A stretch of 64,000 bases of DNA, from positions 79,546,001-79,610,000 of the forward strand of contig OX597831.1 in NCBI GenBank assembly GCA_951406725.2, given 5' to 3'. Of the stretch, positions 36,875-36,919 are shown one piece after another. Each line of letters opens with the position of its first letter. The stretch's first letter is position 1. Position numbers and translations under genes: made by a program. This DNA comes from Octopus vulgaris (Eukaryota). The notes beneath the pieces were generated by a model. That model made no database searches and had not been told where the DNA came from. It saw only the letters and a program-made list of their open reading frames with translations.

Positions 36875-36919
36875 CGTACGCTGATGACAGGTCAAAACCT
36901 AGAAACTGCAGTCCGTGCG
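36875..36919 (+). ncRNA. Minimal type I hammerhead ribozyme
   Basis: Stem I CGTACG/CGTGCG; core CTGATGA; stem II CAGG-TCAAAA-CCTA; GAAA; palindromic stem III ACTGCAGT; GTC cleavage triplet (cut after 36913). Confidence 0.85.

Follow-up and report, generated by a model that had tools for sequence, protein, structure and literature searches.

Organization of the locus

We have analysed a stretch of 64,000 nucleotides from Octopus vulgaris (contig OX597831.1, positions 79,546,001 to 79,610,000 of the forward strand), here called the window, in which a LINE interrupts a tandem repeat that carries a hammerhead motif. The LINE (32021..36855, plus strand) is a defective copy of a Tx1-like element of the L1 group. 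Its Exo_endo_phos, RVT_1 and zf-RVT domains are recognizable, its ORF1 region lacks about 500 nt near 32865, and ORF2 is spread over five frames. The 5' UTR is about 240 nt long. At the 3' end, AATAAA (36844..36849, plus strand) is located 6 nt before the junction. It lies 25 nt before stem I of the hammerhead and no poly(A) tract follows it, just as the preliminary description had it.

Two copies of a 14-bp target site duplication (TSD) enclose the LINE, at 32007..32020 and 36856..36869 (both plus strand). The first base of the 5' copy is the likely transcription start of the repeat, and the 3' copy corresponds to the 14 nt with which the transcript of the repeat likely begins. Both copies are identical and share a G>A change that is rare in the family, as is expected for an insertion at this very locus.

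Outside the LINE lie the two parts of the repeat, upstream at 31744..32020 and downstream at 36856..37085 (both plus strand). Positions 31744-31881 repeat 36948-37085 at 96% identity, and 31882-32020 complete a monomer of 355 nt. The 5' edge is marked by a 17-nt inverted copy of 36911-36927 (31722..31738, minus strand), a 5' inversion of the kind that is a hallmark of Penelope-type mobilization, while the downstream part stops at a preferred 3' end and passes there into (CA)n (37082-37131). Genomic copies free of the LINE join window position 32020 straight to 36870.

Two further features of the window stand apart from this arrangement. A 190-nt unit, which we take to resemble an octopus SINE, is found in 4.6 tandem copies at 22894-23756. 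At 2500-8400, a block of about 2.2 kb is present as a tandem duplicate at 97% identity, with (TTC)n and (ATT)n arrays.

The LINE is inserted at one fixed site of the repeat

We have searched for LINE 3' ends with the last 250 nt of the LINE alone (window 36600-36850), and the best 40 of 171 candidates were analysed. All 40 lie at the same site of the repeat, 25 nt before the catalytic core. Among them, 37 run straight into the hammerhead repeat, namely 35 into the main family with its six subfamilies and two into a distant family E. The other three continue into a TSD followed by another LINE; in two of them a sister LINE leads on to the repeat, and in the third the repeat lies 5' of the LINE. 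The target repeats belong to subfamilies A1, A2, B, C, D and F, plus family E. For the 30 copies with both ends, the 14-bp TSDs are identical in 19, differ by 1-2 bases in 10 and are discordant in one (L122), and the TSD sequence is that of the local target subfamily. In addition, six of eight 5'-truncated copies retain the upstream half of the same repeat, four of them with the TSD. Discordant 5' and 3' flanks are seen in L122 and L119, the 5' end of L119 being foreign. A count of junction 15-mers (131, versus 56 for the control) does not discriminate. Overall, it is almost certain that this LINE family inserts at one fixed site of the repeat, which is the LINE/repeat architecture of the window.

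Could a single LINE-in-retrozyme composite have been amplified as a unit instead, by Penelope-type machinery or by duplication? Such a history would agree with the full length of most LINE copies, with the Penelope-type inversions in the flanks and with the discordant L122 and L119. However, the flanks come from at least six subfamilies with matching TSDs, the truncations vary, and the tandem insertions enclose the TSD. Since the TSDs follow the local subfamily and the 5' truncation points differ, the copies are independent insertions. The composite is already largely refuted by the flank and TSD data, and we consider it extremely improbable.

As for the affiliation of the LINE, its protein pieces are closest in the PDB to L1 ORF2p. 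Two properties of Tx1 elements are found: an ORF2 of the L1 group with APE, RT and zinc domains, and sequence-specific insertion with a TSD into a multicopy target (40/40, for the best 40 of 171 candidates). A homologue search gave almost exclusively unnamed hits, the best named one being a hypothetical protein of Argonauta hians, with no named Tx1 among the hits; a protein atlas search returned RVT_1 only. The best reading of the domains and the targeting is a Tx1-like LINE, its place in the Tx1 clade being one of resemblance.

Two other copies deserve a mention. L283 (543-1681) is an internally deleted LINE copy of 1.1 kb with both ends and a perfect TSD in subfamily C, possibly a non-autonomous derivative. 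In L113 (G000:C2:109083400-109090400), two LINE 3' ends occupy both arms of a retrozyme pair in inverted orientation, where a 5' inversion was perhaps copied after the LINE insertion.

The target is a repeat of the retrozyme type

Judged from its sequence, the hammerhead motif is part of a tandem repeat of about 355 nt of the non-LTR retrozyme kind. This differs from the link between hammerhead and LINE end implied by the preliminary description, as the motif belongs to the target repeat. The copies are usually 0.6-1.4 monomers long, with some dimers (L131, L012, L136, L200); in the L131 dimer, the two cores are 354 nt apart. The repeat thereby shows a property of non-LTR retrozymes, a non-coding tandem monomer within 170-400 nt that carries one type I hammerhead. 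Of 30 repeat rows, 16 show 5' inversions and 26 end at one of two preferred positions, near 211-218 or 257-264 of the monomer, often at simple repeats. Inversions, partial tandem copies and defined 3' ends near simple repeats are together the marks of mobilization by Penelope, and the copy in the window shows the full pattern (the inverted 17-mer at 31722, a direct repeat of 138 nt and a 3' end at (CA)n). The tandem monomer, the inversions and the preferred ends fit an animal non-LTR retrozyme, a class that has been tied to Penelope-like elements (PMC7229834; bioRxiv 10.64898/2026.07.22.740005). A search for data sets that contain the sequence listed no RNA set; contigs of four runs guessed to be RNA cover the stretch and show neither ends nor strand.

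Penelope-type ORFs with GIY-YIG are abundant in the genome (148 matches). No autonomous partner sharing the repeat was found in a small sample, which comprised 30 loci with GIY-YIG, 10 loci taken more widely and 50 loci of the repeat. No terminal repeat was shared in the loci examined, unlike in Penelope-like elements, whose pLTRs flank an ORF with RT and GIY-YIG. The GIY-YIG ORFs that adjoin the repeat in L016/L174, L172, L173 and L202 were considered as partners and rejected, for they look like separate insertions.

We have also observed a young Penelope-type family (L144, L149, L168, L169) with many copies, intact RT/GIY-YIG ORFs of 781 aa and a repeat-rich 3' UTR. The descriptor found no type I hammerhead near its ORF, save one weak candidate in L149/L169. 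In L210 (G000:C1:94321000-94330000), a retrozyme fragment occurs four times at a spacing of about 1.38 kb, as a larger tandem duplication.

The hammerhead and its family

The core read from the sequence consists of CUGAUGA (36881-36887), GAAA (36902-36905) and GUC (36911-36913). Stem I has 6 bp including one G-U (36875-36880/36914-36919), with an extra pairing of 36866-36871 to 36921-36926. Stem II is AGG(U)/(A)CCU with the closing pair C36888·A36901, and stem III is the palindrome ACUGCAGU at 36905-36912. All of these elements, apart from the extra pairing, had been recognized in the preliminary description and are indeed in the sequence. The motif is that of a type I hammerhead with an extended stem I (36866..36926, plus strand; core motif 36875-36919) and a predicted cut after C36913. 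It contains the C3UGANGA9 and G12AAA boxes, the NUH triplet and stems I-III, but not the R10.1-Y11.1 pair that closes stem II in this type, since its subfamily has C·A at 10.1-11.1. The suggested Rfam search was run and gave no hammerhead family match, either at gathering score or at E<=10. In addition, a loose core pattern matches the window no more often than chance would allow, with 4 matches against a mean of 1.8 in shuffles, 15 of 100 of which reach 4. The support for the hammerhead therefore comes from its family.

With a strict pattern of 33 nt we find 189 exact matches in the genome, and with a wider core pattern 953, while the reversed control gives 0 for each. The base at 11.1 was left free in the strict pattern, and it is A in 98 of the 100 matches listed of the 189. 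In a set that was partly chosen by pattern, C·A is found in 36 of 37 copies with C3-G8, whereas 35 of 36 copies with U3 close stem II by G-C or G·U; the sister subfamilies have G-C or G·U at this place, not C-G. That is, the C·A closing pair is the norm of a subfamily and not, as had been supposed, a decayed C-G.

Covariation was evaluated on 31 aligned copies picked for diversity out of 73 distinct ones. In this set 91.7% of cells pair, compared with 28-49% in controls with slid alignments, and 8 of 22 pairs are altered on both sides, a level found in 1 of 500 shuffles that ignore relatedness. Across all rows, C3-G8 is exchanged for U-A or U·G, and both 10.2-11.2 and 10.4-11.4 exchange A-U and G-C. 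Stems II and III covary among the genomic copies. Stem III is palindromic in 67 of the 73 copies, in four spellings, although the search patterns constrained it for part of the set.

According to the folding calculations, stem II of the monomer has a probability of about 0.1. In co-folding, the dimer reaches -45.7 kcal/mol against -42.4 kcal/mol for two monomers, and the predicted dimer has stem II formed together with an 8-bp intermolecular stem III. Dimer hammerheads are expected to fold as pairs in this manner (PMC4209133; PMC6765202). With the palindrome kept through compensatory swaps and the dimer co-folding better, the earlier assignment to the dimer type has held up, and the motif likely needs a dimer partner. 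As there is only one hammerhead at the window locus, this partner would have to come in trans.

A question separate from the targeting is whether the hammerhead of the C·A subfamily is catalytically dead, a passenger in a repeat that owes its spread to something else. High conservation has been described for G10.1-C11.1 and slow cleavage in vitro for the Penelope hammerheads (PMC4209133), and the Rfam search without a match points the same way. On the other hand, the C·A group still exchanges A-U and G-C at 10.2-11.2, its core has the canonical C3-G8, its strict pattern has 189 exact copies, and U·U stands at the same place in the axolotl retrozyme HHR_Amex2 (PMC7229834) and in family E here. 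We find a dead ribozyme rather doubtful, and the fixed C·A pair is a natural hammerhead variant worth assaying.

Family E (L136, L137) is a second hammerhead repeat family. Its core reads CCGAUGA (U4C), U·U closes its stem II, and its stem III palindrome is of the CATGCGTG type. It has the same upstream motif and is a target of LINE insertion too.

The hammerhead and the 3' end of the LINE

The preliminary description had further proposed that the hammerhead could cut read-through LINE RNA at 36913 and that the LINE RNA would then carry target-homologous sequence. In such a model, the cut could be made alone or with free retrozyme RNA, and the 58-nt tail would help to find the next target. Several observations would agree with it: the hammerhead is on the same strand as the LINE, at a fixed distance of 58 nt from LINE end to cut, none of the 41 3' ends has poly(A), and AATAAA is just 6 nt from the junction. 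But the tail is local target in 26 loci. Its sequence tracks the upstream promoter of the local target (rank correlation 0.63, 0/5000 permutations; 26 loci with 7 skipped, mean identity among stretches 76%), so it was not copied from LINE RNA, although a tail used for pairing alone would not be copied and would escape this mosaic test. Nor does the target subfamily cluster on the LINE tree, for which 32 of 41 copies were long enough: we count 22 changes against a shuffled mean of 21.9 and no starred branch, on a tree that is star-like and of low power. Moreover, a sister LINE family inserts at U2 genes, where no hammerhead follows; the window locus has a single hammerhead whose monomer forms stem II with low probability; and several cores flanking LINEs are damaged. 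Processing of LINE RNA by the ribozyme is unsupported by these comparisons, and we regard it as quite unlikely.

What remains of the proposal is its idea of target-homologous 3' sequence, which anticipated the target specificity. Since A runs of at least 7 are absent from all 41 LINE 3' ends, reverse transcription is likely primed by some target sequence reached through read-through. Ordinary cleavage occurs 10-30 nt after AATAAA, and would supply this sequence without a ribozyme. R1Bm likewise needs downstream target sequence (as cited in PMC7265360).

An snRNA-type motif upstream of the insertion site

In the window, the motif ATCAGT is located at 31948..31953 (plus strand), -59 from the insertion site, and is likely the core of an snRNA-type proximal sequence element (PSE). 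In all 30 full-length insertions, [AC]TCAGT lies at -60..-57 of the insertion site. The same motif is found at -59..-57 of 20/20 U1 genes and at -61..-57 of 27/30 U2 genes, and in none of the three groups does it occur at another place within -200..-1; in two of the three U2 misses, a LINE sits at the place of the motif. A shared element about 60 nt upstream of the predicted +1 is characteristic of PSE promoters, and the U2 gene starts with ATCG, in common with the retrozyme. The insertion site is likely the predicted transcription start of the repeat.

The sister LINE family, with 79% identity in ORF2, occupies the retrozyme site in L129 and L135 and the U2 +1 in L278 and L279, where it has duplicated 14 bp of U2 from its first base. 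Four 5' junctions on the U2 side read as the U2 14-mer, a foreign 14-mer and the LINE; three of the four are in one U2 cluster, so the four may be two events. The foreign 14-mer is of the retrozyme type, two bases off the start of subfamily B. It has no exact match at a hammerhead repeat, its six genome matches being four at these LINEs and two elsewhere. This 14-mer may be what a donor RNA starting at the target +1 would leave where it was unable to merge with the target. The common form is also seen in the 5' TSD of L096 and L112, whose local target has another form. Beside a U2 gene, L280 (1231-6584) holds a LINE relative (82% in ORF2) that begins with the first ~17 nt of U1, with no U1 promoter upstream; this start is possibly a leader from a U1 donor.

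As predicted from a 6-nt motif and its position, the Tx1-like LINE probably targets snRNA-type start sites and borrows their promoter. An snRNA-type promoter would start transcription of the repeat from ATCG at +1, and the repeat would self-cleave as a dimer and be spread by Penelope-type proteins. The LINE endonuclease would nick at +1 and then 14 nt further on the other strand, and the upstream promoter would then serve the inserted LINE, whose RNA would have the first 14 bases of the target as its leader. Reading a short way into the downstream TSD, the LINE RNA would pair with the nicked DNA, so that reverse transcription is primed exactly where the LINE ends and no poly(A) remains, with the hammerhead behind the LINE a bystander rather than its 3' processor. 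Transcripts of the snRNA type tend to be short and to terminate at a 3' box, so a coding RNA of 5 kb from such a promoter counts against promoter capture.

The LINE might also seek a plain safe haven, with an endonuclease that reads a short sequence around ATCG, a promoter of its own and an incidental motif. Target choice in such elements is described as set mainly by the endonuclease (PMC4494074), ATCG is common to the retrozyme and U2 starts, and a 5' UTR of ~240 nt is at hand. Yet, apart from (A/G)TCG, the targets A, E and U2 have little in common, while the motif is at about -59 in all of them, and the foreign leader is exactly 14 nt and of target type; we hold this explanation to be unlikely. 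The targeting of start sites could be extended further, if only tentatively. The LINE lineage may find its target through the snRNA-promoter protein complex rather than the DNA sequence, landing at +1 of any PSE promoter (retrozymes, U2, perhaps U1) and taking the promoter. It would pair by target-derived bases at both RNA ends, and its proteins would need to change little for a switch of target. In retrozymes, its 3' end would maybe be cut by pairing with free retrozyme RNA, which would make it a parasite of a parasite.

The arrangement adds ribozyme retrozymes as a target class of sequence-specific LINEs, and points to where an animal retrozyme may be transcribed from. One LINE family at the same base of seven divergent repeat types is a natural set for the study of how an APE-type LINE picks and switches targets, and the 79%-identical sister at both the repeat and the U2 +1 is part of this set. 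Base-exact insertion tethered to a promoter, if true, would interest safe-harbour gene delivery.

Comparison with known systems

In the literature searched, we found no LINE that targets retrozymes or start sites and no link of Tx1 to a hammerhead or retrozyme target; Repbase, as well as the supplements of PMC4494074 and the targets listed in its Fig. 3, lie outside this search and might include a Penelope target. PMC13282606 has no occurrence of 'ribozyme' or 'target', and neither the text of PMC4494074 nor the retrozyme preprint (bioRxiv 10.64898/2026.07.22.740005) gave such a link when searched by terms.

The hammerhead repeat belongs to a known kind, with an unusual closing pair. Like animal retrozymes and the Penelope pLTR hammerheads, it has a tandem monomer within 170-400 nt, a type I hammerhead with palindromic stem III, the U3-A8 core variant, opposite-strand pairs and no ORF (PMC7229834; PMC4209133; bioRxiv 10.64898/2026.07.22.740005). 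Unlike them, it is dispersed mostly as 0.6-1.4 monomers, closes stem II with C·A in the subfamily described here, has an snRNA-like motif in the monomer, was found with no partner element and serves as a LINE target. Newt satellite 2 is likewise a hammerhead tandem repeat with an snRNA-type promoter (as cited in PMC2220036), which is reported from experiment there and suggested by motif position here.

R2 and R1Bm also rely on transcription of their target (PMC4494074, PMC6765202, PMC7265360), and downstream target sequence aids exact priming of R1Bm (PMC7265360). However, R2 encodes its own HDV-like ribozyme at the 5' end (PMC4494074, PMC6765202), whereas the ribozyme here belongs to the target, is located 3' and probably has no role. 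Tx1 families are known to target other transposons, microsatellites and U2 (PMC4494074, PMC4640811). Tx1L in Tx1D, Tx1-Mar in Mariner-N4 and Keno in U2 share with our LINE the APE endonuclease, RT and zf-RVT, a multicopy target with a fixed site, TSDs of 14-17 bp and tandem insertions around the TSD (PMC4494074, PMC4640811). By analogy, the LINE works like these target-specific Tx1 elements. It differs from them in its clade assignment, made by domains and targeting, in its target, a ribozyme repeat entered at the predicted +1 (for the sister, at the first base of U2), and in having a target-type 5' leader and no poly(A).
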